From an uncultured virus (IMG/VR IMGVR_UViG_3300017970_000189) (lineage: Duplodnaviria > Heunggongvirae > Uroviricota > Caudoviricetes), in the IMG/VR virus record IMGVR_UViG_3300017970_000189: DNA of 64,000 nucleotides; one strand, 5' to 3'. A model generated the notes under the pieces. The model did no database searches. It was not told where the DNA came from and saw nothing but the letters and a program-made list of their open reading frames with translations. A program made the position numbers and the translations under genes. Shown in pieces: positions 12,487 to 57,903 of the stretch (positions are counted from its first letter, which is position 1; each line of letters starts with the position of its first letter).

Positions 12487-12711
12487 CTAAGATGTCACCC
12501 TCGGCATATTCCACATCCTGACGGAGGCCTTCTGCAACTTCCTCTCGGTAGGTAGCGAGTAGAAGTAACTTTCGCCTTCAGGGAGAGGAGGGGGTCCGTT
12601 TGCGCCGCATCCTTGGCACTGGAGCATAGGTCCGCGCTCCGAGGAACAGAATCTCCTTCCGGTGGGTCTTTTTCCACAAAACGGACAAGGTTTATTCACC
12701 CCTTTTGCCAT
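12487..12711 (-). CDS. Lar-like restriction alleviation zinc-ribbon protein
   Basis: KPCPFCG...CQGCGANGP...WN pattern. Confidence 0.55.
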   Translation of the reverse strand: MAKGVNKPCPFCGKRPTGRRFCSSERGPMLQCQGCGANGPPPLPEGESYFYSLPTERKLQKASVRMWNMPRVTS

Positions 12712-37697: not shown

Positions 37698-38357
37698 ATG
37701 CGCGCCCACGAATATTGCTGTCCATCCTGCGGAGTGGTCGTGCTTTCCGGTGTCGCCATCGCCGAGGACCCCGGAACCGGCGAAGACGTCTGCCTCTTCT
37801 GCGCCCCCTACGACGAAACCCGCGAGGATTTCTCCATCCTCTTCCTCCAGGACGCCCTCGAGAAAAGCCTCCAATCGGCCCAGATGGGTGTCCGTCAGGT
37901 CGAACCGCCTTCCCGGCCTCTCAACGTCATGATCGCCCCGGATCAGGCGAAGATCGCGATCGAACTCAATAATTTCCTGAAAAAGATCCTCGACATCCTC
38001 TACGAGGACGCCAAATTCGGAAGTACCAACCAGATCGTCCGGGACGGCGGGAAGCAGATCCTGGAAGACATCAATGTCAACATTCGCGCGAAGCTCCTGG
38101 ATCCTGGAAGCGCCATGCGCCTGTCCCCCCTCATCCTCACGAAAGAAGATACGGGCAGATATCTCGGGATCCTGGAACTGATCCATACCCGCTATACCTA
38201 CGCCCACAAGACCATCGTCGGGGACTCCGAGGATCCAGAGGCCACGCGGCGGTATTCCTACACCATGTTCTGGCATATGGGCAGCCTGATCCGGATCGGC
38301 CAGCTTGCCACAACGATTTCCCCCTGGATCACCGGAAAAGAAAAGCCCCGCTTCTGA
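37698..38357 (+). CDS. Hypothetical protein with N-terminal zinc ribbon
   Basis: CPSC...CLFC; TGATG overlap with rmlC. Confidence 0.6.
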   Translation: MRAHEYCCPSCGVVVLSGVAIAEDPGTGEDVCLFCAPYDETREDFSILFLQDALEKSLQSAQMGVRQVEPPSRPLNVMIAPDQAKIAIELNNFLKKILDILYEDAKFGSTNQIVRDGGKQILEDINVNIRAKLLDPGSAMRLSPLILTKEDTGRYLGILELIHTRYTYAHKTIVGDSEDPEATRRYSYTMFWHMGSLIRIGQLATTISPWITGKEKPRF

Positions 38358-38887
38358 TGGAAGTCACTAAAACCTTCCTTTCCGGCGTCTTCATCCTCCA
38401 CCCCAAGGCCCACCGCGATTCCCGCGGCCAGTTCGCCGAAGCCTTCAACGCCTCCATCCTTGCCCAGCATGAACTTCCCTTCCGGGTCGATCAGGTGAAC
38501 GTCTCGATGAGCCAGGAAGAAGGCACCGTCCGAGGAATGCATTGGCAGGAGGACCCCTTAGGCCAGATCAAAATCGTCCGCTGTATCGCGGGAGAGGTTC
38601 TGGACGTCGTGGTCGACGTCCGTCCCTCCTCCTCCACGTACGGCCAATACTACCCAATCTGGCTCCAGGAGGGGGATCTCCAGTCCGTCTACGTCCCCAA
38701 AGGCTGCGCCCACGGCTGGCAGGCGATCAAAAAGCGCTCGGAGATCGAATACCTGGTCTCGGGGTCCTGGAACAAGGAAGCCGAACGCGGCCTCCGGCCG
38801 GATGATCCGGCTATCCAGATCATCTGGGCCAAGACCCCCACCTGCATGAACCCCCGGGACATGTCCTGGCCCCTCTTCAAACCATGA
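38357..38887 (+). CDS. rmlC: dTDP-4-dehydrorhamnose 3,5-epimerase
   Basis: DSRGQFAE, QVNVSMS, GTVRGMHWQ, KIVRC..G...DVVVDVR, YVPKGCAHG. Confidence 0.93.
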   Translation: MEVTKTFLSGVFILHPKAHRDSRGQFAEAFNASILAQHELPFRVDQVNVSMSQEEGTVRGMHWQEDPLGQIKIVRCIAGEVLDVVVDVRPSSSTYGQYYPIWLQEGDLQSVYVPKGCAHGWQAIKKRSEIEYLVSGSWNKEAERGLRPDDPAIQIIWAKTPTCMNPRDMSWPLFKP

Positions 38888-42404: not shown

Positions 42405-42929
42405 CTAACTCAGGACGTAAACGAGCAGCGCGACTGCTGCCACGCCGCCCACGGCCAGGACGACCGGACTCACCGTTGGACCTGAAGGGGGGGTCACCCC
42501 GGCCTTGGCGGCCGTAGCCGGCTGATGAGCCTGCATGAGCTTGAAGGCCTGGTCGATGAGGAGGATCCAGCTATTCGAATCGTTCCATTCCTGGCCCGTC
42601 AACGGCCAGGAAGTCCCCGGAGCGCTCAGGCGCGTCTGGACAGCAAGCGCCGTATCGCTATAGGAATCCGCCTGACCCAAGCTGTCGTTGAATTTCGCGA
42701 GATCCGGGCCCAGAAGCGTCTGCCAATTGGCGTTCTGTTTGAAGGCAGCAATCGCCTTGTTCTCCTCCGCCGCGCGATTGATATTGGCGAGCAGGCTGTC
42801 CCGATCGCCCTTCTGAAGCGTCATCGTGGCCAAGGATGCCGCATCTTGACCGAGGCGATACGCCGGACGATACGGAGAGAGCCCGAACGGGCTCGTTCCG
42901 ACAAAACCCATCGTAAAAAGCGTCTTCAT
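42405..42929 (-). CDS. LGQ-leader, tail-anchored helical protein
   Basis: MKTLFTMGF...[14 protein letters not shown] core; C-terminal TM. Confidence 0.8.
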   Translation of the reverse strand: MKTLFTMGFVGTSPFGLSPYRPAYRLGQDAASLATMTLQKGDRDSLLANINRAAEENKAIAAFKQNANWQTLLGPDLAKFNDSLGQADSYSDTALAVQTRLSAPGTSWPLTGQEWNDSNSWILLIDQAFKLMQAHQPATAAKAGVTPPSGPTVSPVVLAVGGVAAVALLVYVLS

Positions 42930-42932
42930 AGA

Positions 42933-44024
42933 TTACCCAATCACTAAGATGCTTCCACCTAGGAATCCGGGAACGGCGCCACTCCAGGTCACCGTCACTC
43001 CCGCCGAACTGAACGCAGTGATCGAAAGCGTCGCATAAGTTAGAGCAGTGCTGATCGGCAATTGACCGATCACTCCGCTGGAAGCAATGGCAACATTTGT
43101 AGGAGCTTGATTGATATTCAATATCAATGTCGTCTGTCCTGCTCCGATAGCATTCCCAAAGCCATCGGATTTTGCCCAGAACTCTTCCGTACTAGGGGAG
43201 AATGTGAAATTCATCGCCCCCGTAAAATAAACCGCCTTTGGAACAAATGGGAGAGGCCCAGTGGAAGAAGATCCGGAACCCGAAATTGGAAGCAGGAAGC
43301 TTTGAACTGCGCTGGCACCAGTCACGCCCTGGATGCCGGTCGCACCTTGTGGTCCCGTAGAACCCTGTACTCCGGTTGTTCCTTGAACACCTTGAACGCC
43401 GGTCTGTCCTTGAATGCCTTGGACTCCGGTTACCCCTTGAGGACCTCCAGAAGGCCCGGTGACGCCTTGCGGTCCGGTCGATCCCTGAACGCCGGTGGCC
43501 CCTTGAGGACCTCCAGAAGGCCCGGTGACGCCTTGCGGTCCAGTCGATCCCTGAACGCCGGTGGCCCCTTGAGGACCTCCGGAAGGCCCGGTGGTACCTT
43601 GAGGACCGGTTTGACCTTGGATGCCGGTGCTTCCTTGTACACCAGTTGCGCCTACAGGGCCTCCTGAAGGTCCAGTGACCCCTTGGGGTCCAGTCTGACC
43701 TTGAACGCCCGTCGTGCCTTGGGGACCTCCAGAAGGCCCGGTGACGCCTTGAGGGCCAGTTTCCCCTTGAGGTCCGGTCCCGCCGCCCGCAATTCCGGTG
43801 ACACCTTGAGAGCCAGGCTGGCCTGGTGCCCCTGGGGGCCCCACTCCGCCTCCACCTCCGGAAATGAATGGAAAGCCTGCGAGCGCCGAACGGCCGATGA
43901 CCGGATTGATAACAGGAAGGAGCTCCTGGAGCTCCATGAAGTCCTGGCCTGTGAGCGACGTGTCGGAATAGAGGATCCGACCGTCAATGAATTGGACCAG
44001 GCCATTCGCGAGGATCTTGGCCAA
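42933..44024 (-). CDS. Collagen-like fibre protein 1 (constant N-terminus, head type A)
   Basis: [13 protein letters not shown]-terminus; alternating GXT/GXQ triplets; beta-rich C-terminal domain. Confidence 0.9.
43435..43592. repeat. 66-bp tandem repeat (~2.4 copies) within collagen gene 1
   Basis: Unit ccttgaggacctcc(a/g)gaaggcccggtg... starts at 43435, 43501 and 43567. Confidence 0.85.
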
Positions 44025-44110
44025 AATGGCTCTCCGTAGAGAGCCAGAGGAGGGGGAGGGGTGCCTCCGGCAGACTTTTAGATACTATCCTATCCAGAAT
44101 TGAAAATCTA
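44025..44110 (-). promoter_or_regulatory. Promoter (TAGATT-N17-TAGTAT) plus structured 5' leader, copy 1
   Basis: Leader GTCTGCCGGAGGCACCCCTCCCCCTCCTCTGGCTCTCTACGGAGAGCCATT before TTG. Confidence 0.85.
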
Positions 44111-44143
44111 GTTTAACTGCCACCCCAGCCGATCTGGGGACAA

Positions 44144-45313
44144 TTATCCGATCACCATGATGCTTCCACCAAAGGTTCCCGGGATGGCCAAGGACCAAGC
44201 CACCGTAACTCCCGCAGGACTGAAGGCGGTGATGCTCAGAAAGCTGTACGTCGGAGTTGCATTGACGGGTAGCTGTCCGATAAATCCAGTTGATCCATCC
44301 ACAGAGGACAGCCCTGACGAGAACACCGTAGTGGCCTCCGTTTGGCCGCCACCCACCACCTGCCCGAACCCTGAGCTCCTCCCCTTAAAGGTGGTGACCA
44401 TGAAACCGCAGAAGTAGACCGCCTGTGGAGTAAATGGAAGAGGCCCAGTGCTAGAGGATCCACTTGCGGCAATTGCCATGAAGAAGCTCTGAACCCCGCT
44501 GATCCCCGTCGCGCCCTGGAGGCCGGTCGCTCCTTCAACTCCCGTGACGCCTTGGACTCCTGATCCGGTCTGACCTTGAACGCCAGTTTGCCCCTGGCTG
44601 CCCGTCGGACCTTGAATCCCCGTGGCGCCTTGGATCCCCACCCCGGTCTGGCCCTGGATGCCTGTTTGTCCTTGTATCCCTTGAACACCCGTCGTGCCCT
44701 GGGCCCCGACCCCGGTCTGACCTTGAACGCCGGTTGCGCCTTGAGGACCGCCAGCCGGACCTGTCGCACCCTGCACCCCGGTTTCGCCTTGAGCACCCAC
44801 GCCAGGACCCGTGACGCCTTGAGCGCCTGTTGCGCCAACACCGGTTTGCCCTTGAATCCCGGTAGTGCCCTGCATCCCCGTAATGCCCTGCACTCCGGTA
44901 TTGCCCTGGGCTCCGACCCCGGTCTGGCCTTGAGTGCCGGTGGTGCCCTGCATCCCCGTGATGCCTTGCACTCCGGTATTTCCCTGCACTCCGGTCGCGC
45001 CAGGAGGGCCGCCAAAAGGACCGGTGACGCCTTGCGGGCCCGTTTCGCCCTGAGTGCCGGTCTCACCCTGAAGACCGGTGCCTCCACCCGCGATTCCCGT
45101 AACCCCCTGGGCGCCGGGAGCACCTGGCGTCCCCTGTCCTCCACCACCCGAAACAAAGGGGAATCCGACCGTGGCCGCGCGGCCGATGACAGGGTTAATT
45201 ACAGGCAGGAGCTCCTGAAGCTCCATGAAATCCTGGCCCATGAGCGGCGTATCGGAATAGAGAATCCGACCGTCGATGAATTGGACCAGGCCATTCGCGA
45301 GGATCTTGGCCAA
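44144..45313 (-). CDS. Collagen-like fibre protein 2 (head type A')
   Basis: Same N-terminus; head VQSF...[18 protein letters not shown] shared with gene 1. Confidence 0.9.
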
Positions 45314-45403
45314 AATGGCTCTCCGCTAAGAGAGCCAGAGGAGGGGGAGGGAAGAGCCTCCGGCAGACTTTTAGATACTATCCTATCCAGAATTGAAAGT
45401 CTA
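45314..45403 (-). promoter_or_regulatory. Promoter (TAGACT-N17-TAGTAT) plus structured 5' leader, copy 2
   Basis: Same leader with loop-only changes (TTAGCG loop). Confidence 0.85.
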
Positions 45404-45405
45404 GT

Positions 45406-45720
45406 TTAACTCCCTCCCCAGCCGATCTGGGGACGATAGTTGCACACCGTATTGCCATAAAGATCGGCATAGATCGTCCAATTGCCGTCTGCCGAGGGAT
45501 CCTGAGTCACTCCCATGATCCAGTAGGCGACATCCTTGGGCGTCGCCGAATCCGCCCCTCCGCCTCCGAACATGAGGTCGGCATAGGCACTCTGGAGCCT
45601 GAAATTCAGAATATCCCCGTTCACCACCCGGACGCTGTCGAGCGCCATGATGTAGTTCACGACATCGGCAGGGGTTGCCGAATCGATCCCGACGATGAAA
45701 TTGACGGTCGTGAAGAACAT
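45406..45720 (-). CDS. Hypothetical protein with internal DSATPxDV repeat
   Basis: DSATPADVVNYIM / DSATPKDVAYWIM; TGATG overlap with the upstream gene. Confidence 0.65.
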   Translation of the reverse strand: MFFTTVNFIVGIDSATPADVVNYIMALDSVRVVNGDILNFRLQSAYADLMFGGGGADSATPKDVAYWIMGVTQDPSADGNWTIYADLYGNTVCNYRPQIGWGGS

Positions 45721-46568
45721 CAGGCAATCCGGAGCATCATTCTCATGTCATTGCCGTTCACGGGCGCCACGGTGGTCCGGAAGGTTCCCACTGTCGAATC
45801 GTCGAGCGCCACCGGTTTAATGCTGCCCGTTCCCACGGAGATGTCCGTAACATAGGTCTGATAGGTGCGTCCACCCCAAACCAGCTTCGAACTGGGAAGG
45901 ATGAGAATATCCATGGGGAAAAACTGGAGATTTCCTTGGAAATCTACCAGACCCACATCGGCCGATATCGATTGACCGACACTCCGAACTCGTTCCCGGT
46001 TTGTTGAAACCCCGTTTTCGATCGCAAACCACTGATCGAAGACCGTCACCTGGCCGTCGAACGTGCCGGAGGAATTTCCCGTTCCGGTGCCTAGTACATA
46101 GGAGTTAAGCGAACCCAGGGCATAAGGGCTCGGCTCGATCATCATCGCGGCGCAATAGTACGGCGTCGTGCCGGACCGGAGCGCCTCGATGAAACAGTGA
46201 TACTGTCCCGTGTAGTAATTGATCGTATCGGCCGGAGTGCCGTCGATGCTGATGCCGCGGGAGCATACCGTCACGCTGTTCTGGTCGACCACGGTCCAGG
46301 AAAGCGCCGTCGTGCTGACCACGGTCACCGTGAGGACCAAGAACCGGCCGGCCGAATCGACCGGAGACTTGAACGTGGCGGCGGTATAGTTCGGGGCCGT
46401 TCCGGTCGACGAGACCAGGGTCCATAGAGGGTTTTGCGGCACGATGGGCGACGGCGGGGTGGGATTGGTGAGCACGTTTACCAGATCGTTGATGATCTGG
46501 CTCACGTTCGTCACGTCGTCGTCGGAATAGAAGAAAAAACTGGACAGCAGGAAATTCGGGATCGTCAT
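45720..46568 (-). CDS. Beta-rich structural-type protein, paralog of 46565..47380
   Basis: Start moved to ATG 46568 (ATGA overlap); shared NVSQII.D, SPVD..GRF, NYYTGQ.H, GL.D..GNLQ.FP.D. Confidence 0.75.
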   Translation of the reverse strand: MTIPNFLLSSFFFYSDDDVTNVSQIINDLVNVLTNPTPPSPIVPQNPLWTLVSSTGTAPNYTAATFKSPVDSAGRFLVLTVTVVSTTALSWTVVDQNSVTVCSRGISIDGTPADTINYYTGQYHCFIEALRSGTTPYYCAAMMIEPSPYALGSLNSYVLGTGTGNSSGTFDGQVTVFDQWFAIENGVSTNRERVRSVGQSISADVGLVDFQGNLQFFPMDILILPSSKLVWGGRTYQTYVTDISVGTGSIKPVALDDSTVGTFRTTVAPVNGNDMRMMLRIA

Positions 46569-47380
46569 GCGACTCTTACTAGGACTATCGTCCCATCGCT
46601 CTCGGTCAATCCGGTAATCGCCTTGAATGTTCCAAGGACCAGCCCGGTCGTATCGATCGGAATGGTCCGCGTCGTGCCGGCCGCGATGCTCGAATCGCCG
46701 ACATAAGCCTGATACTGACGTCCGATCCAGCGGTTCGTTCCGGAAATGTTGGCGAACATGTCGGCCGGAAAATACTGAAGATTTCCGGCTCCGTCCTTGA
46801 GGCCGATATTTCCGACCGAAACCGTCTGGCCCCACGCCCGGATCCTCTGCTGCTGCTGGGCGGTCCCGTTGTCGAGCATGAATTCCTGGGAAACCGTGCT
46901 GCCCTGTCCGTCGTTCGTGCCGCCGCTGTTCCGGAAGGCATTCGCCCAGACGTAGTCCGGGATCGCATTCTGGGCCAGCGGCGTCTCGTCCAGAATCCCC
47001 GCCTGGAAGACCTCAGCGCCGCCGGGACCGCCGCCCGAGGTATTGAAGCTCTCGATCCAGGCGTGGAACTGCCCGGTGTAGTAGTTCACCGTCGTGTTCC
47101 CGGTCGAATTGATCTCGATCGACCTGGTGATGATGGTCACGTTGTTCTGGTCGGTCACGGTGATCGTGAGCTGGGTCGACGACGTCGCGACCATCGTGAG
47201 CGTCATGAAGCGTCCGACGCCGTCCACGGGCGAGACGAAGACCCCGGTGCTCGGGTTGGTCCAAGCCGGGCTCTGGCCTGTTACCCGGGACTGGAAATCG
47301 GAGATGATCTGCGAAACATTGTTGACGGTCGAATCCGTAAAGAAATCGAAGCTCGACGCGAAGCAGGGGAAAGTCGTCAC
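46565..47380 (-). CDS. Beta-rich structural-type protein, paralog of 45720..46568
   Basis: GTG start overlapping the collagen gene 3 stop; Thr/Ser/Asn-rich; motifs shared with its paralog. Confidence 0.75.
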
Positions 47381-48618
47381 GTTGCCCTCACATACATCGA
47401 AGCCGTTTCACCGATCGTGGTCGTTCCCACCTGGATGATCTGGGCGGTCACTGGAGTGCCCGCAGGAATGGTCACTGCCGAAATCGTGAGCGTTCCGCTC
47501 GTGTTCCCCGCCGCGACCGTCACGACGCCGAGCGACGTCGCTCCATAGAAGAATTGAACTTGGACCGACTGCCCCTGCGGAGCCTGCTGGAGATAAACGT
47601 CGAGCTCGGTGGTCGTAACCGGAACCGTTTGCACTTCGACAGGAATAAGCTGGTTCTGGATCGTTGAGAGCGTGCCGGAGAAGACGAAGAGGAAGTCTAC
47701 ACCGCTCGTCCCGCCGCCGCCCGTGCCGGTGGCACCCTGGATCCCAGTCGCGCCTTGAATGCCCGCTCCCGTTGCCCCTTGCACCCCGGTAGCGCCTTGG
47801 ACTCCGGTAACCCCCTGTTGGCCGGTCGCACCCTGAATGCCGGCTCCGGTCTGTCCCTGTACGCCGGTCTGGCCCTGGACCCCTTGTACGCCCGTCTCGC
47901 CTTGGGCACCCGCACCGGGACCGGTAACGCCTTGGAGGCCGGTGACGCCTTGAACACCTGCGCCCGTCGAGCCTTGGGCACCCGTCTGGCCTTGCGAACC
48001 CGTTGAGCCTTGCACTCCAGTCGCACCCTGGATCCCGGTGCCCGTCTGACCCTGAATTCCCGTCTGGCCCTGAGTTCCCTGCGTTCCGGTCGCTCCCTGC
48101 GTCCCGGTCCCCGTTTGACCTTGAATGCCGGTCGCACCTTGGGATCCAGGAACTCCCTGTGGACCTTGAGTACCGGTCGCTCCTTGCGTTCCGGCTCCAG
48201 TCGACCCCTGAATGCCGGTCTGGCCCTGCGTGCCTGGAGTTCCCGTCGCTCCCTGCGTCCCGGCTCCGGTCGTCCCTTGCGGGCCGGTCTCGCCACGAAC
48301 TCCGGTGGCTCCCTGAGCACCGGTGACCCCAGCTTCTCCTCCGGAAGGTCCCGTGACACCTTGGGGACCGGTAGAGCCACCCGCGGTTCCGGTAACGCCC
48401 TGGGGTCCTTGCGGACCTTGTGCGCCCGGGGGACCGACTCCGCCGCCGCCTCCCGAAACAAACGGGAAACCGGCAAGCGCGGAACGGCCAATGACCGGAT
48501 TGATGATGGGAAGGAGCTCCTGGAGCTCCATGAAGTCCTGGCCGGTGAGCGACGTGTCAGAATAGAGAATCCGACCGTCGGTGAATTGGACCAGGCCATT
48601 CGCGAGGATCTTGGCCAA
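47377..48618 (-). CDS. Collagen-like fibre protein 3 (head type B)
   Basis: Constant N-terminus; GXT/GXQ triplets; unrelated C-terminal domain. Confidence 0.9.
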
Positions 48619-48706
48619 AATGGCTCTCCGTTAAGAGAGCCAGAGGAGGGGGAGGGGAGCCTCCGGCGGATCAACAAATTCTACTTCGCGTCGGCATCAA
48701 TTACAA
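48619..48706 (-). promoter_or_regulatory. Promoter (TTGTAA-N17-TAGAAT) plus structured 5' leader, copy 3
   Basis: Same leader (TTAACG loop); different promoter sequence, same spacing. Confidence 0.85.
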
Positions 48707-48711
48707 GAGAT

Positions 48712-49365
48712 TCAGAATTTACGGGAGAGCAGCACTCCCGCGATGACCGCAATCGAAATTCCTCCGACTATCCATGCTGCAGTTGGAATCTCCGGTGCCT
48801 TTGCAGGAGCGCCCGGCGCAGCCGGAGCCAAGGGAGTTGCAGGACTCGAAGGCGCCCGAGCGGGCGCAGGAGCCACCACGGTTGAAGATGGAGGCGCTGG
48901 AGCAGGAGCTGGAGATGTCGGAACGGGAGCTGGCACCGGAGCAGCCTGAGCTGGGGCAGAAACTGGAGCAGCCTGGGCAGCCGCCTGCGGAAACGTGCTC
49001 GCGATCGCCGAAAGGAGATCGTTCTTACTCAGAATCCCTTCCAGCCGGTTCATCTCCTGGCCGCTCTGAAGAAACAGCGTCGTTGGAATCGACTGAATGT
49101 TAAATTGGGAGACCAGGCTTGGATTTTCATCTACGTTCGCCGTCACCATGAGGATGCCTCCAGGAGGCGACGAGGAGACATCCTCGAAGACGGGCTTATA
49201 CTTCATGCAGGGAACGCAGGTCGAGCTCCAGAAATCCACGATGGCGAGCGGCGCGCTCAAGACCTGTCCGGAATTGTCGTCCGTCACACCGGTCCCCAGG
49301 AACCTGCGCCGCGGACGATAAGACCGGGCGAGAGGCACCTGTCCCAACCAGGGAGACCCAAGCAT
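48712..49365 (-). CDS. Thioredoxin-domain protein with LGQ leader, Pro/Ala linker and C-terminal TM anchor
   Basis: IVDFWSSTCVPC...VDENP.L...F.IQSIPT; PWLGQ; tail AAWIVGGISIAVIAGVLLSRKF. Confidence 0.88.
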   Translation of the reverse strand: MLGSPWLGQVPLARSYRPRRRFLGTGVTDDNSGQVLSAPLAIVDFWSSTCVPCMKYKPVFEDVSSSPPGGILMVTANVDENPSLVSQFNIQSIPTTLFLQSGQEMNRLEGILSKNDLLSAIASTFPQAAAQAAPVSAPAQAAPVPAPVPTSPAPAPAPPSSTVVAPAPARAPSSPATPLAPAAPGAPAKAPEIPTAAWIVGGISIAVIAGVLLSRKF

Positions 49366-49638
49366 GACGAGCCTCCTATTTGCCGATGACCCTCATGACA
49401 TCGAGGAGGCTTTCCTCGCGCGTGGCCGGACGATGATCCGCCGAAGTGGCTGGGAAGGCATAGGTATAGACAACCCGAAACTTCTTGTTGGGAAAGACGG
49501 TCTTGCTGAAATGGTCGATGATGAGCGGCCTCCGGTACTTCGGATTCTTCAGAGGCTCGGACTGAACCACGACATGATCATGATCAGGCGCCTTCATGAT
49601 CGCATCCCTGACCTTCCGCTCGCTAGGCGTCGTGATCA

Positions 49639-50151
49639 TTAAGTCACCGTAAAGACGATCGTGATGTTTACGCCGCCGTTCTCAAACTGTCCGGTCTCGA
49701 CAACGGAGATTCCTTCTCCGGCATTGAGAACGATCGGCGACATTTCGATATCGCCAATCATTCTAAACAGATCTTCCGGAACATCGTTGATGGTGCCTAT
49801 CGTCGTTCCGGTGCCTAGAAACGCGCTAGAGGAGGTACTGAGACCCAGAGGATTACCGATTGCGGTCGCCGAAGTGGGATTGATCTGAGCCGTGACTTCC
49901 ACAGGAAGAGCGGTATTCGTCGAATCGAAGGCTTCCGGAGAAACGACCGTTCCTCCTGAAGGAGCCGCATCGATCTTGCGAAGAGAGAAATCCATGAAGA
50001 TGTCCTGTCCTCCCACCAGGGAGGCCGTGACCGCCATGATGCTGATGGTGATGCCGCTCCCAGATCCATTGAATAGGGCTACCAAGATGGAATTCAGACC
50101 CGAAGAGTCAGGATCGACGGAGATGACCCAAGTTTGCTGTCTTGCAACCAC
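49639..50151 (-). CDS. Stand-alone paralog of the collagen 4 head domain (type C')
   Basis: ARQQTWV...[15 protein letters not shown]...[17 protein letters not shown]...[11 protein letters not shown] aligns with the C-terminus of 50162..51568. Confidence 0.85.
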   Translation of the reverse strand: MVARQQTWVISVDPDSSGLNSILVALFNGSGSGITISIMAVTASLVGGQDIFMDFSLRKIDAAPSGGTVVSPEAFDSTNTALPVEVTAQINPTSATAIGNPLGLSTSSSAFLGTGTTIGTINDVPEDLFRMIGDIEMSPIVLNAGEGISVVETGQFENGGVNITIVFTVT

Positions 50152-50161
50152 GAGCCACTCA

Positions 50162-51568
50162 CTAAGTGACCGTAAAGATGATCGTCACATTCATACCGCC
50201 GGCTTCAAAGTTAGCGCTCGAAACGACGGAAACTCCTTCTCCGGTATTGAGCACGATCGGCGACATTTCGACGTCGGGAATCATCCGGAAGAGATACCTG
50301 GGCACATCGTTCGTCTGGCCGACCGCCGGAGAGGTGCCCTGGAAGGCCGCCTGAGACGCGCTCCTTCCCAGAGGATTGCCGATCACCGTAGCTCCTCCGG
50401 TCGGGTTGATCTGGGCCGTAACCTGCACGGGGAGAGCGGTATTGGTCGAATCGTAGGCTTCCGCAGAGACGACGGTTCCTCCCGTGGGAGCCGAGTCGAT
50501 TTTATTGAGGACGGCATCTACAAATTCGTCCTGGCCACCCACTATCGAAACGGCCACCGACATGATGCTGATCGTAATTCCGCTGCCAGAAGCGTTGAAC
50601 AGCGCAAGCATGGTGATGCCGGCACCGGAATCCGGGCTGGTCGCGAGCACCCAGGTGGCTTGTCTCGCGATCGAGGATCCTCCGCCCGGTCCCGTGGCAC
50701 CCTGAGGCCCGGTCGCGCCCTGAGAGCCTGTATTGCCGGTGTTGCCTTGAACGCCCGTGGCTCCTTGCACGCCTGTGGCGCCCTGGATTCCGGCTCCGGT
50801 TGATCCCTGAACGCCGGTCGTGCCTTGCACGCCCTGGACGCCCGTAGCGCCCTGGATCCCCGCGCCTGTCTGGCCCTGGACGCCCGTCTGGCCTTGAACT
50901 CCCTGGACGCCGGTGACACCTTGTTCCCCGGCGCCAGGTCCGGTCACTCCCTGAATGCCCGTCGAGCCCTGAATACCGGCGCCAGTCTGGCCTTCCACTC
51001 CGGTCTGGCCTTGCACGCCCTGGACGCCCGTGGCGCCCTGGATCCCAGCGCCGGTCTGGCCCTGAATTCCCGTCTGGCCCTGCACTCCTTGAGTGCCGGT
51101 CTGACCCTGAACCCCGGCGCCTGTGGATCCCTGGATGCCCGTCTGACCTTGGGTCCCCTGAGTGCCGGTCTGGCCTTGTACGCCTGCACCGGTAGTTCCT
51201 TGGATGCCGGTAGTGCCCTGGGCTCCCGTCATGCCCTGAGGTCCTTGGGCTCCGGTGGCTCCTACTTCCCCAGTGGTTGGCCCCGTGACGCCTTGCGGAC
51301 CGGTGGCACCCTGCGGTCCCGTTCCGCCGCCAGCGATCCCAGTGACTCCCTGAGGACCGGTCTGACCCTGTGCTCCTTGAGGACCTACTCCGCCACCGCC
51401 TCCCGAAACGAAGGGGAAACCGGCTAGCGCGGAACGGCTGATGACCGGATTGATGACGGGAAGGAGCTCCTGAAGCTCCATGAAGTCCTGGCCGGTGACG
51501 ACCATGTCGGAATAGAGAATCCGACCGTCGGTAAATTGGACCAGGCCATTCGCGAGGATCTTGGCCAA
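50162..51568 (-). CDS. Collagen-like fibre protein 4 (head type C)
   Basis: Constant N-terminus; long GXT/GXQ stalk; ~165-aa beta-rich head. Confidence 0.9.
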
Positions 51569-51653
51569 AATGGCTCTCCGTAGAGAGCCAGAGGAGGGGG
51601 AGGGGACCTCCGGCGGACTTTCTAATGGTAGCCCAAAACTTCCAAAAAAGCTA
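51569..51653 (-). promoter_or_regulatory. Promoter (TAGCTT-N17-TACCAT) plus structured 5' leader, copy 4
   Basis: Same leader with cTACGg loop. Confidence 0.85.
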
Positions 51654-51667
51654 TCTTTTCTACTCGA

Positions 51668-53353
51668 TCAGGTGAGCTGAATCATGACGATTCCAGCATT
51701 TCCAGGGGATCCGGTTCCCCCATTGGTAAACCCGAGTCCTCCAGTACCCCCTGCTCCGCCGCTTGCCGTTACGGTAGGCCCTGGAGGTCCCCAGTAGATG
51801 GCAATCCCCCCGGGACCGCCGCCTCCACCGCCCCCGCCGCCGGCGTCGCTGGCAGCCCCGTTAAAGGCATTCGAACCGTTCCCACCGGCGCCGCCATTGG
51901 CGGAAACCGTCCAGGAAGGGCTTCCGGAACCGAGGGCAACCAACACGAGGCAACCTCCGCCGCCTCCTCCTCCGCCTCCTCCCGAGCTGGCGAGAGAGAC
52001 CCCAGCGCCAGAAGAGGCACCACCGGCTGCACCCGCGCCGCCGCTAAGAGGAGGGAGAATCGAGGCGGCACCGCCTCCTCCTCCGCCTCCTCCTTGATCA
52101 AACCCGGTACTTGGCGAATTCCCGCCGCCGCCTCCTCCGCCTGCACCGGCTTGCGCCGCGAAAGACTTGAAATCCGTAGCTCCGGTCCAGTTTGCCGTAG
52201 GCCCGGCAACCACCGGGATATTGAGAAGATCCAGCAATCCCGACGCAAAATTAAGACCCATGAAGAGAGAGTTATAGGAGGGATTGATCCCGATTCCGGG
52301 AACTCCACCCGCACCGCCACTGTTTCCATTACCGGAGCCCGTCCCGCCAAATGCGTTCAGTTGCGGGCTGATTTGTCTTCCAAAAAGCTGAACATTTCCA
52401 AGGACTCCGTTTCCAGTATCTCCACCCCCTTCACCGGCCAATCCCAGTGCTCCAGGAGTCGCTGCCGCGCCTGCGCTTCCATTTGCATTGATGGAGCCAG
52501 GATCTCCATTCGGAGCATGCGCGGCAAAGACCCAGACGGCGCCGAATCCGTTGCCCCCCGTGCCGCCTGCACTTGGCCCCGGATTCAAGTTACCCAGTCC
52601 CCCTCCGCCAACTCCGGGAGTCGCAATGGTGAAGTTGGTCGCCGTGATCGTACCGCCTGCCAAGGTGAGCGTGCCGGAAACGAAAATGACGACCAAAGCA
52701 TCATTGGCAAACTGGGTCAGCGTGTGTCCCGCCAGATTCAAGCTGGAGTATTGGACCGTCCAGGCATATTGGACGAGCGTCGTGTTTGCGACCAGAGTGA
52801 GCGATCCATCAATACCCGCGCCGAAGAGATAGGTAGGAACCGCGGTTCCAGCGACGCCCTGGGGTCCGGTTTGTCCTTGAGCCCCTGTAGTTCCAGGAAT
52901 TCCTTGAGTCCCCGTGCTTCCCTGTGTTCCGCCTCCGGTGGGCCCCTGGATGCCGGTCTGGCCACTCGGTCCTTGAGCCCCGGTCACGCCCGGTCCCCCT
53001 GCTCCGATACGTCCTTGGGCTCCCGTCGCTCCTTGCGGACCCTGAGCGCCCGTTCCTCCTGGAGCACCCGCCGAGGGGCCCGTCACGCCCGGGATCCCCG
53101 TCACCCCTTCTGGACCGGTCCCGCCCGCACCGACCCCGGTCACCCCTTGTGGGCCCTGCTGACCGGGCGCTCCAGCTCCTCCCCCTCCGCCAGTAAAGGG
53201 AAACCCTGCCAGCCCCGAACGGCCGATGAGCGGATTGATCTTAGGCAGGAGCTCTTGAAGCTCCATGAAATCCTGGCCGGTGACCGCCGTATCGGAATAG
53301 AGAATCCGGCCGTCGCTAAATTGTATCAGACCATTGGCGAGGATCTGAGCCAA
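51668..53353 (-). CDS. Collagen-like fibre protein 5 (short stalk, glycine-rich head type D)
   Basis: MAQILANGLIQF N-terminus; [11 protein letters not shown] then poly-Gly tracts. Confidence 0.9.
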   Translation of the reverse strand: MAQILANGLIQFSDGRILYSDTAVTGQDFMELQELLPKINPLIGRSGLAGFPFTGGGGGAGAPGQQGPQGVTGVGAGGTGPEGVTGIPGVTGPSAGAPGGTGAQGPQGATGAQGRIGAGGPGVTGAQGPSGQTGIQGPTGGGTQGSTGTQGIPGTTGAQGQTGPQGVAGTAVPTYLFGAGIDGSLTLVANTTLVQYAWTVQYSSLNLAGHTLTQFANDALVVIFVSGTLTLAGGTITATNFTIATPGVGGGGLGNLNPGPSAGGTGGNGFGAVWVFAAHAPNGDPGSINANGSAGAAATPGALGLAGEGGGDTGNGVLGNVQLFGRQISPQLNAFGGTGSGNGNSGGAGGVPGIGINPSYNSLFMGLNFASGLLDLLNIPVVAGPTANWTGATDFKSFAAQAGAGGGGGGGNSPSTGFDQGGGGGGGGAASILPPLSGGAGAAGGASSGAGVSLASSGGGGGGGGGGCLVLVALGSGSPSWTVSANGGAGGNGSNAFNGAASDAGGGGGGGGGPGGIAIYWGPPGPTVTASGGAGGTGGLGFTNGGTGSPGNAGIVMIQLT

Positions 53354-53362
53354 GGGGTTCTC

Positions 53363-53557
53363 CTAGATCTTGCTGGGGAACCCTAAATTTCCGAAGGGCA
53401 CAGTTTTACTCGGGACCGGATTGGTCAGGAACGCGGGCTTTGGCTTGCAGTTGTCGCAGTATCCTTCCTGCTTTCTGACGGACTTGTACCTGAGATCGAT
53501 GTCTCCGTAGGCCAGGAGCGTGCCGCATTTCCCAAGACAATAAACTTTGTAGATCAT
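53363..53557 (-). CDS. Small zinc-ribbon protein
   Basis: CLGKC...CDNC; coupled to the upstream stop. Confidence 0.5.
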   Translation of the reverse strand: MIYKVYCLGKCGTLLAYGDIDLRYKSVRKQEGYCDNCKPKPAFLTNPVPSKTVPFGNLGFPSKI

Positions 53558-55227
53558 CAGGTCAGCATGACCATCGCGTATCCGGCAGCCCCGGCTCCTC
53601 CCGCGGTCCCGTTCTGGAATCCCAGTCCAGCGGCTCCTCCGGCCCCACCGGTGGCGGTCACCGTCGGCCCAGGAGGTCCCCAGTAGAGCGCGACCCCGCC
53701 AGGACCGCCGCCGCCACCACCGCCACCGCCGGCATCGCTGGAAGCCCCGTTAAAGGCGTTCGAACCCGCTCCGCCAGCACCGCCGTTTGCAGAGATCACC
53801 CACGACGGGCTTCCAGCGCCGAGCGCAACCAAGGCTACGGAACCGCCACCGCCTCCTCCGCCGCCTCCCCCTGAAGTCGCAAACGTCACCCCGGCGCCGG
53901 AAGAGTTCCCTCCAGCGCCGCCCGCCCCGCCGGCAAAACCTGGAATCAGGGAAGCCGCGCCGCCGCCACCGCCTCCGCCTCCCTGGTCAAAACCGGAACT
54001 TCCGGAATTTCCTGCGCCACCCCCGCCGCCAGCGCCGGATGCCGCTGCAAAAGCCTTGAAATCGTTGGCTCCGGTCCAATTTTGCGTTGGAGCCTGGACG
54101 ACCGGAAGATTGAGAAGATCGAACCATGCAGGCGCAAACCGGATCCCGATGGAGAGCGAATTGAAAGTAGGGCTAATTCCAGTTCCGCCGGCGCCACCGG
54201 CACCACCGGTATTCGTACTGGGATTGACTCCGGGGGACGCATTTGTTACGCCGATTCCATTCCCGTACATCAGAACAGCCCCGCTTGCTGAAGTTCCAGC
54301 GCCACCTCCGCCGTCACCGGACGCTCCTTGGGCCCCAGGAACCGCCGCTGCACCCGCGGCTCCATTCGCACTGATGAATCCCGGATCTCCGTTCGGAGCA
54401 TTGGCCGCAAAAACCCAGACGGATCCGTATCCCAGACCTCCCCCGCCGCCGGCGCCCGGTCCACCGGACACGCCGCGGCTGCCAACACCTCCAGTACCAG
54501 GAGTCGAAACCGAGTAGTTCGTCGCCGTGATCATCCCGCCGCCCAAAGTAAGCGTGCCGGAAACAAATATGGCGACCAGAGCATCGTTGGCAAACTGGGT
54601 CAAGGTGTGTCCGGCAAGATTCAAGTTCAAGTATTGGACAGTCCATTGATATTGGACGAGAGTGGTGTTCGCCACGAGGGTGAGCGAGCCATCGATGCCG
54701 CCGCCGAAGAAGTAGGAGGCGGCTCCTCCGCCGCTTTGGCCCTGGGTTCCGGTGGCTCCCTGGGCTCCGGTGGTTCCCTGGGCACCCGTGACCCCCTGCG
54801 ACCCGGCTCCGGTTTGTCCCTGAATGCCGGTCTGGCCCTGGGGTCCTTGAATCCCGGTCGCTCCGGGAGTTCCTGCGCCGGTCTGGCCCTGGATACCGGT
54901 CTGACCTTGAGGCCCTTGAACGCCCGTCGATCCTTGCTCGCCGGTCGTCGGTCCCGTCACCCCCTGAGGCCCGGTCACCCCCTGTGGGCCCGTGCCGCCA
55001 CCGGCAACTCCCGTGACGCCTTGAGCGCCAGGCGCTCCGGGCGTGCCCGCACCGCCGCCTCCGCTGACGAAGGGAAAGCCAGCCAGAGCGGAACGACCGA
55101 TGACCGGGTTGATCTTAGGTAGGAGCTCCTGGAGCTCCATGAAATCCTGGCCGGTAATGGGCGTGTCGGAATAGAGGATCCGACCGTCACTAAACTGCAC
55201 GAGACCGTTGCCCAGGATCTGCGCCAA
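53557..55227 (-). CDS. Collagen-like fibre protein 6 (glycine-rich head type D')
   Basis: Start moved to TTG 55227 to match the paralogs; head closely similar to gene 5. Confidence 0.9.
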
Positions 55228-55237
55228 GGCCCCCCCT

Positions 55238-55939
55238 CTAGGATCTGAAGGCGAAGATGCCAAGAGTGATGGCGGCCAGCGCCCCGACGCCTATGAGAAC
55301 CGGACTGGGGCCTCCTCCCGCCGCAGGCTTGGCCGCCGCGGCCGCCGGAGCTTTCGCGCCTGCTGGCGCGGCCGGCGCGGGATGGCTCGTCATGAGGGCA
55401 TACTGGCCGTTGATCGCCTCCAGCCAGTTGGCGAGCGAAGCCTGCTCATCCGTCGTCATGAACCAGGCATCGCTGTTGTTCGTCTGGAGCCGCTGTTGGA
55501 GCGTGGTCACCGAATCATAGTTGTTGTTCGCCTCGTCCTGGAAGGCATTCCACCGGCCCAGATCCGGCCCGAGCAGGGTCTGGTAATCCGGATGGTTGTT
55601 CACCCAGGTCGCGACGGCGTTCATCTTGTCCTGGGCGGTCGCGATGGTCGACAGCGTCTTCGAACGGTCCACCGACTGGCCCAGCCTTCCCCCCAGGGGA
55701 TAGACCGGCTCGATCAGGGTCTCGCCATAATTCGGATAGGCGCATTCCGGCCCATAGGTTCCCGGACCGCAGAAGATCTCGCTACCAGCCCAGCCGCCGC
55801 GAGGGCCTCCGCGGGGACCGCCGCCTCCGCCGCCACCCCCGCGTCCCAAGCTGGATGGATGCGGCCAGAAGGCTTCCGGATGGCCGCCCAGGCCGAAGAC
55901 ATCCTGGTGCGCGAACCCCATGGTGAACAGCGTTTTCAT
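55238..55939 (-). CDS. LGQ-leader, tail-anchored helical protein (paralog of 41864 and 42405)
   Basis: Start moved to ATG 55939 (MKTLFTMGF, as in 42405); [14 protein letters not shown] core; C-terminal TM. Confidence 0.8.
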
Positions 55940-55953
55940 CTTTTTCCTCGCTA

Positions 55954-56541
55954 TCAGGCGCTCTTCGGCAGCCCTTTTCCCATGACCGATCCCATCACTC
56001 CACGCGCGCGCCAGGCCGCGTTTCTTTTTTTGAATTCCCGATACGCCTTTTCGAGGCCCCCGTGATCGACCCCATCCTGGAGAAACTTGTCGACCTCGAT
56101 CCACAGGTTCGGATTGAGATGGACGATCCCCGTTGCCAGTCCCTTCAGGCGGTACATCGCGCTTCCCACGGGGAAATCGTCGAAGATCACTCCCGGAGGA
56201 AGGATGGGCTTGATCTCCTCTTCGAGAGCCTCGCGATCCTCTCGAGTCAACCCAGGAGATTTATCCACAACGTCCATCTGCATGGCGATCGGGACCAGAT
56301 CCTCCCGGGTGATCACGTTTTTGAAGATCCTCACCACTGGGCCGATCCGGTGAAGAACCTCCCGGGCCCAGGCGGCGGAAGCCGATGTCAAGAGACACAG
56401 ATCCCCGTACACGGCGAGCTTTTCGAGGAATTGGTTTACCCCCGGTCGCACGATGATGTCGATCGGCTCATCCGTCACCGGATCAAGCACCGGCGCGGCG
56501 AGCACGTTGTCCATGTCCGTGTAGATGGGCTTTCGGATCAT
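55954..56541 (-). CDS. HAD-superfamily phosphatase, FCP1/NIF-like
   Basis: TDMDNVL (DxD) motif; VRPGVNQFL; LLTSA; IFDD. Confidence 0.75.
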   Translation of the reverse strand: MIRKPIYTDMDNVLAAPVLDPVTDEPIDIIVRPGVNQFLEKLAVYGDLCLLTSASAAWAREVLHRIGPVVRIFKNVITREDLVPIAMQMDVVDKSPGLTREDREALEEEIKPILPPGVIFDDFPVGSAMYRLKGLATGIVHLNPNLWIEVDKFLQDGVDHGGLEKAYREFKKRNAAWRARGVMGSVMGKGLPKSA

Positions 56542-56621
56542 CGGACAGGGCTCCTGTGAGAACAGGACTGTCCGGACGGACGATCAGATTGAAGTTGGAC
56601 TGTCGCTAGAAAGGCCGACAA
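56538..56621 (-). CDS. 27-aa leader peptide (MSAFLATVQLQSDRPSGQSCSHRSPVR) coupled to the HAD phosphatase
   Basis: TTG directly after leader copy 5; its TGA overlaps the phosphatase ATG (ATGA). Confidence 0.5.
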   Translation of the reverse strand: MSAFLATVQLQSDRPSGQSCSHRSPVR

Positions 56622-56709
56622 AGATGGCTCTCCTTACGAGAGCCAGAGGAGGGGGAGGGGTGCCTCCGGCAGACCTAGTAATAATAGCCCGGAGCCAGGA
56701 GGAAGTCTA
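56622..56709 (-). promoter_or_regulatory. Promoter (TAGACT-N17-TATTAT) plus structured 5' leader, copy 5
   Basis: Same leader (GTAAG loop), not followed by a collagen gene. Confidence 0.85.
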
Positions 56710-56722
56710 CCTTTTTACGCCC

Positions 56723-57146
56723 CTATTCCTCTTCGGGACGGGCCCCCACACGATGTTTCAGGCGCCATCCTTGAGGATAACTTTTGTCTAAGAATTCCTG
56801 AAACGTAAATTGCCACCAACCGTGAGGATCGACCGTTTCCACGGTCACCGTGGAGATTCCGCCTGGATATTCGAGCAAGAAATCGTAAATCGCCCCAACG
56901 GAATCTCGATCAGCGCTCCATACCTGAAAGCTCATGTTCCCCAGAGCAAGCATTCGGCCGCGGATCCAACCGGACTTGATCACCTTCTTCATCGCGGCAT
57001 TGATCTCGTCCTTCCCGTGAGGTGATTCCTCCAACCCGAAAACCTCAGGCATTTGAATGATGGATTTGAAGGGGAATGACTGCTCCCCTTTGGGAAAGCC
57101 AGAATCCCTGCGGTGCAAAGTTCGGTTTCTTAGCCTTTTTGGCCAT
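56723..57146 (-). pseudogene. Apparently frameshifted hypothetical gene
   Basis: ATG 57146 frame (MAKKAKKPNFAPQGFWLSQRGAVIPLQIH) stops at 57045; continuation IIQMPEVFGL...GWIRGR is in another frame. Confidence 0.5.
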
Positions 57147-57183
57147 ATCGTTTGATCGTGTCCTTCCCCAACCAATAGTTCAA

Positions 57184-57903
57184 TCACACTTCCGGCGATT
57201 CCTCGTGATAAAGGAGCCCGAATTCGTCCCGATCGTTCAGCCCGAACAGGGTAAGTCCCGGAAGGTCTTCCGGCATGGCCCAAATGAGCGCCCGCTCGAT
57301 CTCATAGAGGACCGGATTGAGCAGCTCCCTCCAAGGATCCCCACCCTCCCTTTTGATCCTCTCCACATCTCCCACCGGGATCCCGAGGAACCGCGCAACT
57401 TCCTCCTCCGCGCCTTCCTCGCGTTGCGCGATCATGATGAGCGGAAGCTCCGCCTGAGGGCCCCCTCGTTCCGTCTCTTCTATCGCCCGCCTGAATTCCG
57501 GATCCTGCCGGCCTTCCCGGACCATCTCCCACAGGCTGGGAAGGTCAAAAAGACCGCTCAACCATTCCTCAGACGGCAATTCAGGAGGCCTTCTTAAAAT
57601 AGGCGGGGGTGGCGCGGCCCGACGAACAGGAGGCGCTCTTCTCGCGGGCTCCGCGGGCGGCGGCACTCGTGCAGGAGCTTCGCGAACCGGAAAAGCTTCC
57701 AGGATTCCGAAGCCTGTGGGTTCCTCGGCCTTTCGAATGACTTCGAAGGCGCCGGGAGCCTGAATCATCCCCGTCTCCTCCGGAGGACGGAGCACATCAA
57801 ACACATCCGGATTCAAGGCAGGCGGTCGCGCGGGATGGTAGAACTCCACGAGCCCTTTTGGCTCTTCCTCCTTCTTCCGTTTCAAAAAGTCAAAAAGAGC
57901 CAC
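57184..57903 (-). CDS. Pro-rich protein with one copy of a repeated ~125-aa C-terminal domain
   Basis: FDL..LW...R...FLGIP...W.ELL.P...PEDLPG...Y.E. Confidence 0.75.
   Translation of the reverse strand: MALFDFLKRKKEEEPKGLVEFYHPARPPALNPDVFDVLRPPEETGMIQAPGAFEVIRKAEEPTGFGILEAFPVREAPARVPPPAEPARRAPPVRRAAPPPPILRRPPELPSEEWLSGLFDLPSLWEMVREGRQDPEFRRAIEETERGGPQAELPLIMIAQREEGAEEEVARFLGIPVGDVERIKREGGDPWRELLNPVLYEIERALIWAMPEDLPGLTLFGLNDRDEFGLLYHEESPEV

Follow-up and report, generated by a model that had tools for sequence, protein, structure and literature searches.

We analyzed a stretch of 64,000 nucleotides (nt) from an uncultured virus of the class Caudoviricetes (IMG/VR record IMGVR_UViG_3300017970_000189), in which a leader of about 50 nt is repeated five times in a cluster of tail-fiber genes, each copy ending at a Shine-Dalgarno (SD) sequence and a start codon. 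We refer to the whole stretch as the window; it represents part of a phage genome only. The window derives from a novel phage of peat metagenomes. Near-identical DNA was found in four peat-metagenome runs, and comparison of the window with a phage collection and with IMG/VR gave no match. Megablast of positions 43000-52000 and tblastn of the fiber protein F4 and of a neighboring protein of 685 amino acids (aa) also gave no match in the phage collection, and the 685-aa neighbor was not found in viral contigs. Most open reading frames (ORFs) of the window had no recognized family. Those that did encode two Clp_N-domain proteins, a fatty-acid desaturase, and RmlC, MazG-like, thioredoxin, aquaporin-like and Phage_ABA_S proteins.

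The minus strand between 42.9 and 56.7 kb carries six collagen-like fiber paralogs, F1 to F6, which all start with TTG. They share a 56-aa N-terminal domain with 82-95% identity and differ in their C-terminal parts. The same domain was found in 14 metagenomic proteins with 73-85% identity. This design suggests several alternative receptor-binding fibers docking at one site (window 42933-55227, minus strand). A thioredoxin-domain protein (48712-49365, minus strand, E 1.1e-16) is also encoded within the cluster, downstream of F4. The fiber genes and the genes at the head of the cluster are as follows.

42933..44024, minus strand: F1, collagen-like fiber paralog with TTG start and 56-aa N-terminal domain
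44144..45313, minus strand: F2, fiber paralog
47377..48618, minus strand: F3, fiber paralog
50162..51568, minus strand: F4, fiber paralog
51668..53353, minus strand: F5, fiber paralog inside the c5 unit, without a leader; ordinary SD (GGAGA) and TTG
53557..55227, minus strand: F6, fiber paralog without a leader; SD GAGGGGGGG, TTG at 55227, 10 nt past the stop codon of the preceding gene
55954..56541, minus strand: NIF/HAD-type phosphatase-like gene, 195 aa (Pfam PF03031, E 1.1e-08), the first real gene behind c5
56538..56621, minus strand: mini-ORF of 27 codons with TTG start; its TGA and the ATG of the NIF-like gene overlap (ATGA)

The five leader copies, c1 to c5, head five predicted transcription units that jointly carry all six fiber paralogs. 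They are listed with their promoter-like hexamers, the predicted transcription start (+1), the covariance-model score and the unit that follows.

44025..44110, minus strand: c1; -35 TAGATT 44110-44105, -10 TAGTAT 44087-44082, predicted +1 44075, leader 44075-44025, 80.3 bits; leads into the TTG (44024) of F1; predicted unit F1 and downstream genes
Parts of c1, minus strand: 5' arm GCCGGAGG 44071-44064; C-rich tract and 5' arm of hairpin B 44060-44039; loop UACG 44038-44035; 3' arm of hairpin B with the SD 44034-44027
45314..45403, minus strand: c2; -35 TAGACT 45403-45398, -10 TAGTAT 45380-45375, predicted +1 45368, leader 45368-45314, 75.2 bits; leads into the TTG (45313) of F2; predicted unit F2
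48619..48706, minus strand: c3; -35 TTGTAA 48706-48701, -10 TAGAAT 48683-48678, predicted +1 48671, leader 48671-48619, 77.8 bits; leads into the TTG (48618) of F3; predicted unit F3 and following ORFs
51569..51653, minus strand: c4; -35 TAGCTT 51653-51648, -10 TACCAT 51630-51625, predicted +1 51618, leader 51618-51569, 76.5 bits; leads into the TTG (51568) of F4; predicted unit F4, small ORFs and a thioredoxin-like gene
56622..56709, minus strand: c5; -35 TAGACT 56709-56704, -10 TATTAT 56686-56681, predicted +1 56674, leader 56674-56622, 72.6 bits; heads a predicted operon of the NIF-like phosphatase gene, the gene for an MKTLFTMGF protein, F6 and F5

The core of the leader is a 22-mer, CCCTCCCCCTCCTCTGGCTCTC, found in five exact copies on the minus strand only (44039-60, 45330-51, 48635-56, 51583-604 and 56638-59). 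The chance expectation was 0.01, five copies were reached in 0 of 100 dinucleotide-preserving shuffles, and there were no further matches in the window at up to three mismatches. Alignment of the five copies gave a common block of about 50 nt, consisting of R-U-C-Y-GCCGGAGG, a spacer of 2-5 nt, the 22-mer, a loop of 4-6 nt and GAGAGCCAU. A covariance model run with filters off over the 64 kb recovered just the five copies (72.6-80.3 bits), the next match scoring 10.6 bits. An earlier note on this DNA, made from the sequence alone, had given coordinates for five copies, and both the exact search and the alignment confirmed them. It had also proposed a candidate new RNA switch. The novelty of the motif was supported: Rfam 15 gave no match at the gathering score in the whole window, and in E-value mode positions 42500-57500 gave two sub-threshold matches, neither overlapping a leader. 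A coding function of the block was considered and rejected; the antisense ORFs across it lie in collagen-repeat sequence and have no family matches.

We then examined where the block lies relative to promoters and start codons. In the five window copies, anchored on GCCGGAGG, a TAnnAT hexamer ends 6 nt before the block (TAGTAT twice, TAGAAT, TACCAT and TATTAT), and a -35-like hexamer lies 17 nt above it (TAGATT, TAGACT, TTGTAA, TAGCTT and TAGACT), as the earlier note had described. TAnnnT has a background frequency of 0.0047 per position, and it ends 6 nt before the block in 10 of 10 known copies (five in the window and five distinct ones in relatives), all of which also have GGAG and a start codon at the end of the block. 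A stock promoter scan at 9 of 12 matches flagged c3 and c5 only. The upstream 75 nt are common to c1 and c2, and the sequences upstream of c3, c4 and c5 are unrelated. There are thus four promoter contexts, with c1 and c2 alike, which agrees with the claim that promoter position is conserved and promoter sequence is not. The first nucleotide of the block is a purine 7 nt after the -10 hexamer, where a sigma70-type promoter would be predicted to start transcription. At the other end, GGAGAG is followed 5-7 nt later by TTG. This TTG is the real start codon judging from the coding sequences, because the six paralogs all open with TTG-GCN-(A/C)AG-ATC-CT and their later codons differ mainly at third positions. 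These results support an element of the transcribed strand whose ends coincide exactly with the predicted +1 on one side and the SD with its start codon on the other. On the upstream side of the c1, c2 and c3 promoters we also noted GC-rich hairpins without U-runs (about 44122-44138, 45413-45429 and 48722-48740, minus strand; CCCCAG-AUCGG-CUGGGG and CGGGAG...CUCCCG), which may be unit-end terminators or 3' stabilizers.

The earlier note had read the leader as a gate on the fiber genes. The placement would fit this for F1 to F4, each of which lies behind a leader. It does not fit for F5 and F6, which are leaderless, or for c5, which precedes the 27-codon mini-ORF. The leaderless F5 and F6 lie inside the c5 operon, so the leader marks transcript starts and not fiber genes as such. 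The TTG of the mini-ORF has the same distance from hairpin B as the fiber TTG, and about 19 of its first 36 nt are identical to a fiber start (counted by eye). A second strain has an in-frame 3-nt insertion in the mini-ORF together with three non-synonymous changes and one synonymous change. Judging from its sequence, the mini-ORF is probably the decayed 5' end of a fiber gene, with a present role as a coupling ORF.

To expand the comparison, we searched metagenome contigs with an 18-mer, CCCTCCCCCTCCTCTGGC. This search returned 117 loci, mostly chance matches. The covariance model identified as true members L043 (two copies, L043a and L043b; 78.5 and 67.9 bits), L003 (75.0 bits; L083 is its identical twin), L084 (71.2 bits) and L025 (53.8 bits), and no non-member among all 178 loci scored above 25.4 bits. 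The same 18-mer found 46 loci in genome contigs, all chance-like (at most 25.4 bits), with no member among them. In viral contigs, the exact 22-mer gave no match, a 16-mer pattern gave 14 loci with none at E <=0.01 against the model, and a hairpin-B pattern gave one match (L164), an unrelated hairpin after a stop codon; these 15 loci included no member. A profile of the fiber N-terminal domain yielded no confirmed locus in viral, metagenome or genome contigs, one of the two peptide patterns having required an ATG-encoded M. The comparative set therefore comprises 10 distinct leaders from four phage genotypes, five in the window and five in relatives. The relatives' leaders precede fiber genes (L003, L043a and L084), a 281-aa ORF (L043b) and an MGF-like gene (L025), and start codons are TTG in four of them and ATG in L025.

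The block is more conserved than the coding sequence that follows it. The five window copies have no differences in 38 columns of stems and C-rich tract; differences are confined to the first 4 nt, the spacer, the loop of hairpin B and the bases after it, as the earlier note had claimed when it placed them in loops and ends. In the first 168 coding nt of F1 to F4, 8-21 of 56 third positions differ. The block of c5 is intact with unrelated sequence on both flanks, and its limits are the predicted +1 and the start codon. A second peat run contained a variant in the c3 loop (48634 A>C). Across the 10 leaders, all length changes lie in predicted loops (2-8 nt in the spacer and 4-6 nt in the loop of B). 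This fits an RNA and not a rigid DNA site. We judge the element, from a thin body of evidence, to be real, under selection and of the RNA level. Its kind, a cis-regulatory leader and portable regulatory cassette, is already known, and the motif itself is new.

We next analyzed the folding of the leader. The predicted minimum free energy (MFE) fold of the window copies (RNAfold) consists of hairpin B (UGGCUCUC/GAGAGCCA, -13.7 to -15.3 kcal/mol) and a 5-bp GGAGG/CCUCC hairpin, with 8 nt, CCCUCCUC, unpaired between them. Folding z-scores of the window leaders against shuffles were -2.0 to -3.3. Hairpin B buries the GGAGAG SD in these predicted folds, in line with the earlier note, and has the UACG loop closed as cUACGg in the two copies c1 and c4. 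In the 10-leader alignment 91% of the cells of helix B (columns 36-43 with 50-57) are paired, and eight of the 10 leaders have a B of -13.0 to -15.3 kcal/mol. L025 has another long hairpin in place of B, in which CCUCUGGC is likewise paired with the region of the SD and AUG. The stem of B has 7-9 bp, with five GC pairs in all window copies. A U-run of 3-4 occurs in the first 5-6 nt after B in 9 of 10 copies; the starts of the leaderless F5 and F6 lack it. Among the window copies, c5 alone satisfies the tail rule for terminators (at least five T in 8 nt), the others having UUUU followed by GG. On these predictions hairpin B with UUUU also looks like a weak terminator.

A second helix, A, pairs GCYRGAGG (columns 7-14) with CCUCUGGC (columns 32-39). 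It was paired in 80 of 80 cells, compared with 45-70% for controls slid by 1-3 columns. Two of its columns vary, from C-G to U-G and from G-U to A-U. The same G-to-A change breaks the MFE register A1 in 4 of 10 copies (one more cell is broken in L043b) and weakens complementarity to the CCUCC anti-SD. Therefore the conserved partner is CCUCUGGC and not the ribosome. Only the full 8-bp helix A gives the invariant GCY (columns 7-9) a partner in all 10 leaders. Helices A and B overlap at columns 36-39 (UGGC). The earlier note had proposed a hairpin A as well; it is absent from the window MFE, where GGAGG pairs with the first CCUCC, and it is compatible with all 10 known copies. Despite its absence from the MFE, this hairpin A is the one favored by the comparative data. 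In most copies the A and B states differ by about 1-5 kcal/mol, and there are three near-degenerate states. In the window copies, the best fold with A forced has -19.8 to -22.8 kcal/mol versus -24.5 to -25.1 kcal/mol with B, and the A state leaves a 4-bp remnant of B. The A state is the MFE in L003, L043a and L043b; when the leader is folded without the 3' arm of B, as before its synthesis, A is the MFE in all 10 copies.

Taken together, we favor a two-state, promoter-proximal leader in which hairpin B is the default off state and a factor on the C-rich tract sets the balance, and we give this reading a probability of about 0.4. The sequences show the anatomy and placement of the leader and the conservation of both helices; where transcription starts, that the leader switches, that a factor drives it, and whether translation or termination is controlled are inferences. 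The proposed unit is a portable cassette, comprising a sigma70-type promoter, the leader of about 50 nt, the SD and the start codon, that this phage and its relatives would place at the starts of tail-fiber-module transcription units. In the default fold, B (7-9 bp, -13 to -15 kcal/mol) would lock the SD GGAGAG in its 3' arm, next to the short U-run containing the UUG start, while the 5' GGAGG would rest on one of three CCUCC/CCUCU registers of the C-rich tract. In the alternative fold, the 5' arm GCYRGAGG would extend to 8 bp with CCUCUGGC and remove the base of B, which would free the SD and abolish the terminator-like hairpin. B may thus keep expression of each unit low or shut it off, through a block of initiation and perhaps also through early termination. 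A factor recognizing the C-rich loop or tract could then tip the balance to A, with all fiber units responding together. In these models the leader probably throttles fiber-unit expression. The earlier note had called the switch translational. This was not established: the leader tracks first cistrons, and B with UUUU resembles a weak terminator as well.

The layout of the leader has known counterparts. In protein-controlled antiterminator/terminator attenuators of the BglG/LicT-RAT type and in SD-sequestering riboregulators, which are also promoter-proximal leaders, an upstream hairpin overlaps by a few nt the 5' arm of a more stable downstream hairpin, which ends in U residues and/or holds the SD. 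Likewise, helix A overlaps the 5' arm of the terminator-like B (columns 36-39), and by computation the SD lies in the stable helix B and is freed in the predicted A conformer. Unlike these systems, the leader has no RAT consensus and no ligand-binding aptamer, and the window has no gene for a PRD-type antiterminator; the sequence features that define these families are all missing. Its U-run, of just 3-4 nt, contains the start codon, unlike in attenuators, and its three-register C-rich tract has no counterpart there.

Several other modes of action were considered and rejected or downgraded. An RNA thermometer was rejected, as the MFE fold stays unchanged over 5-37 C, with -25 kcal/mol at the upper temperature. 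The maturation gene of MS2 is a precedent for a kinetic trap; here the direct-path barrier from A to B is only 7-9 kcal/mol in the window copies (9.4 kcal/mol in L003 and L043a), so a trap would be short-lived. A CsrA-type site was rejected because the loops of B lack conservation and Pfam scans of the ORFs revealed no CsrA gene. Long-range pairing of the C-rich tract with G-rich runs of glycine codons was found in F5 only and not in the leader-bearing genes.

A number of points weigh against a switching leader. The transcription starts, the termination and the folds are all predictions, and the computed energy gap between A and B lies within the error of the energy model. In the window copies A is rare in the ensemble (0.000-0.017, with B at about 0.80-0.81), while in L003 and L043a A reaches about 0.8 and B about 0.2, so the A/B balance is not conserved. 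No compensatory change affects both sides of helix A, whose 3' arm does not vary. This arm also belonged to the 18-mer used to find the relatives and is therefore subject to ascertainment bias. The invariance of the C-rich tract in the relatives is likewise partly due to ascertainment, because the tract was the search word; L043b, the sole copy found independently of the exact word, has one change in the tract and two in hairpin B, where it carries a U-C mismatch. The comparative set is small (10 copies from four phages), and its substitutions are one-sided. The U-run is short, and one of five window copies passed the terminator rule. Pfam scans of 321 ORFs (50 and 271) recognized no RNA-binding regulator, sigma factor or antiterminator, including CsrA, Hfq, cold-shock and KH proteins. 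The identity among F1 to F4 reaches about 35 nt into the coding sequence, and gene conversion could therefore maintain part of it. The RNAalifold consensus holds a 5-bp A, in the register of the earlier note, beside a 7-bp B. The hairpins that were proposed to be mutually exclusive do compete for UGGC and are close in energy; because the consensus keeps both, their exclusion is partial. A static leader with two hairpins would therefore explain most of the conservation.

Such a static leader is possible, though doubtful. It would be a 5' untranslated cassette in which the 5'-proximal hairpin and B protect the mRNA 5' end and damp initiation to a fixed level without switching, giving matched amounts of the paralogs. 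Its identity would be kept by gene conversion and by selection for equal output, as the paralogs compete for one docking site. The coexistence of both hairpins in the consensus fits this explanation, as do the presence of B in the lowest-energy states of most copies, the extent of F1-F4 identity over the whole initiation region (leader plus the first ~35 coding nt), the restriction of the leader to transcript starts and never internal genes, and the common 56-aa N-terminal domain of six paralogs. However, the invariant GCY is paired in 10 of 10 copies only by the 8-bp helix A, an alternative GGC at the start codon being missing in L043b and L025, and conservation of the C-rich tract extends well beyond the 5 nt needed for one register. 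Outputs would be unmatched anyway because the promoters differ, and an SD within a hairpin of -13 to -15 kcal/mol would be odd for a constitutive initiation region. Known 5' stabilizers include the T7 gene 10 leader, the ompA 5' hairpin and the STAB-SD of cryIIIA. The leader resembles them in having a hairpin within 4-6 nt of the 5' end and an SD-like GGAGG near that end. Unlike in STAB-SD, the word varies (GGAGG in six of the 10 leaders, AGAGG in the other four), and it is paired in every predicted state. The change to AGAGG keeps the intramolecular pairing and weakens pairing with the ribosome, which means that conservation does not extend to a STAB-SD role; ribosome standby at this 5' word was rejected too, as the word itself is not conserved.

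The distribution of the cassette among relatives also bears on whether the element could act as DNA. Copies within one genome are of one type, either GCCGGAGG or GCUAGAGG, suggesting concerted evolution or co-evolution with a genome-specific partner. L003 and the window share synteny of a NIF-like gene, an MGF-like gene and a fiber gene (60% and 39% identity; the NIF-like gene of the window is 60% identical to L003:38-616), and the cassette lies at a different junction in each. It precedes the first fiber gene in L003 (1167-1229) and the MGF-like gene in L025 (657-722), and it is absent at the homologous MGF/fiber junction of the window (55227-55240). A DNA-level element could be a recombination substrate, it could be bound by a DNA-binding regulator, or its template strand could form a G-rich structure (GGAGGGGGAGG) at which RNA polymerase pauses. 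In the recombination version, the repeats would shuffle, duplicate or delete fiber cassettes, like the mobile regulatory cassettes of T4-type phages. We consider this quite unlikely. Five direct repeats do flank fiber cassettes, the junctions differ (a fiber gene in L003, an MGF-like gene in L025 and the NIF-like operon in the window), and the uniform type within a genome indicates concerted evolution. However, all 10 copies keep one orientation and one position with respect to the -10 box and the start codon, the spacer and loop differ in length by up to 6 nt, which is ill-suited to a rigid duplex site, and the substitutions preserve RNA pairing. Unitigs in Logan contigs break at each repeat. 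The joints found in the region lie in collagen repeats and have short sides, and no read-level joint connects leader copies, though the cassette junction differs among L003, L025 and the window. Recombination may also be a side effect of any repeat.

A precedent for such a DNA-level cassette is PeSL of T4-type phages, repeated cassettes of a sigma70-like promoter and a stem-loop that flank variable genes (PMC2839356, PMC4122927). PeSL resembles the leader in being a composite repeated cassette whose placement differs between close relatives. In PeSL it is the promoter that is repeated and conserved, with the stem-loop ahead of it as a terminator of incoming transcription, whereas here the promoters differ and the transcribed leader including the SD is conserved (PMC2839356, PMC4122927). 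The hexamers and spacers differ among c1/c2, c3, c4 and c5, with only their position conserved, and the hairpins upstream of the c1, c2 and c3 promoters are not homologous.

The closest described element is SAS/ESAS of Cluster K mycobacteriophages (PMC3203893). SAS are short repeats in one orientation directly before the start codons of diverse genes, with a 13-bp consensus, GGGATAGGAGCCC, a few bp upstream of the start codon. They contain an SD, about half have an upstream inverted repeat, and their consensus has genome-specific variants; their function is unknown, and the authors suspect a role in translation initiation or the binding of a host or phage factor (PMC3203893). The leader is likewise SD-containing, with genome-specific variants, and all 10 copies are start-associated, in one orientation and before different gene families (fiber paralogs, the mini-ORF/NIF-like operon, an MGF-like gene and a 281-aa ORF). 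However, its end, GGAGAGCC(A/U), is not the SAS consensus, and SAS have no tie to a promoter or transcript start, no C-rich anti-SD-like tract and no competing helices, and belong to another host group (PMC3203893).

The U-run and the unpaired 8-nt stretch raise the question of whether the leader yields a product or signal of its own. It could be transcribed from the five promoters and terminated to a short C-rich trans RNA of about 57 nt that acts on G-rich, SD-like targets, or it could be a put-like cis RNA that modifies the polymerase for read-through of hairpins further downstream. The promoter, two hairpins and U-run resemble a small RNA gene, the 8-nt stretch between the hairpins is unpaired in the MFE, the units are separated by hairpins without U-runs, and an RMF-like ORF described below hints at phage interference with SD/anti-SD recognition. 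We consider this explanation very unlikely, as every copy runs directly into an SD and start codon, the only G-rich complementary targets found in the window are glycine-codon runs, the U-run is weak, and the RNA species of ~57 nt is itself a prediction.

Returning to the two-state leader, it might be the RNA half of a phage-specific circuit, in which a phage protein reads the C-rich loop and flips the fiber units between B (off) and A (on). We regard this extension as unlikely. The protein could be a late factor, or it could be the 56-aa N-terminal domain of the fibers acting as feedback from unassembled subunits. In a bolder version, prematurely terminated C-rich leaders of ~57 nt would serve as anti-SD-like decoys and, with the RMF-like protein, re-program host ribosomes. 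If true, the circuit would couple the synthesis of alternative receptor-binding fibers to timing or assembly. Phages with several alternative fibers must set the amount of each, and this control is mostly unknown outside a few model phages. The leader is a compact, sequence-defined candidate control element in which two helices compete, one of them holds the SD, and the C-rich tract is invariant; all fiber transcription units of this uncultivated phage lineage carry it. If the switching is true, the leader would define a previously undescribed family of cis-regulatory RNAs and could help to identify its partner. If the leader is static, it would still be a portable cassette of promoter, leader and initiation region moving between gene junctions, and this mobility bears on the duplication and exchange of fiber modules.

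Elsewhere in the window, we noted several further genes. A 67-aa ORF (4043-4246, minus strand) matched Pfam RMF with 28.4 bits (cut-off 27.9) and the solved RMF structure 2jrm with E 0.006. RMF acts at the anti-SD end of 16S rRNA, which makes this ORF intriguing beside a leader rich in SD and anti-SD-like words. A 74-aa ORF (12487-12711, minus strand) matched the Lar restriction-alleviation family with E 2.9e-06 and 27.9 bits, below the 28.6 cut-off. On the plus strand, a 221-aa ORF (23533-24198) strongly matched the major intrinsic protein (aquaporin) family (E 1.3e-27), an unusual phage cargo. Two paralogous Clp_N-domain proteins are encoded at 27650-28321 and 35689-36330 on the same strand (E 6e-33 and 3e-24), in a block that also contains genes for a methyltransferase, a fatty-acid desaturase (36775-37656) and a dTDP-4-dehydrorhamnose 3,5-epimerase (38357-38887).

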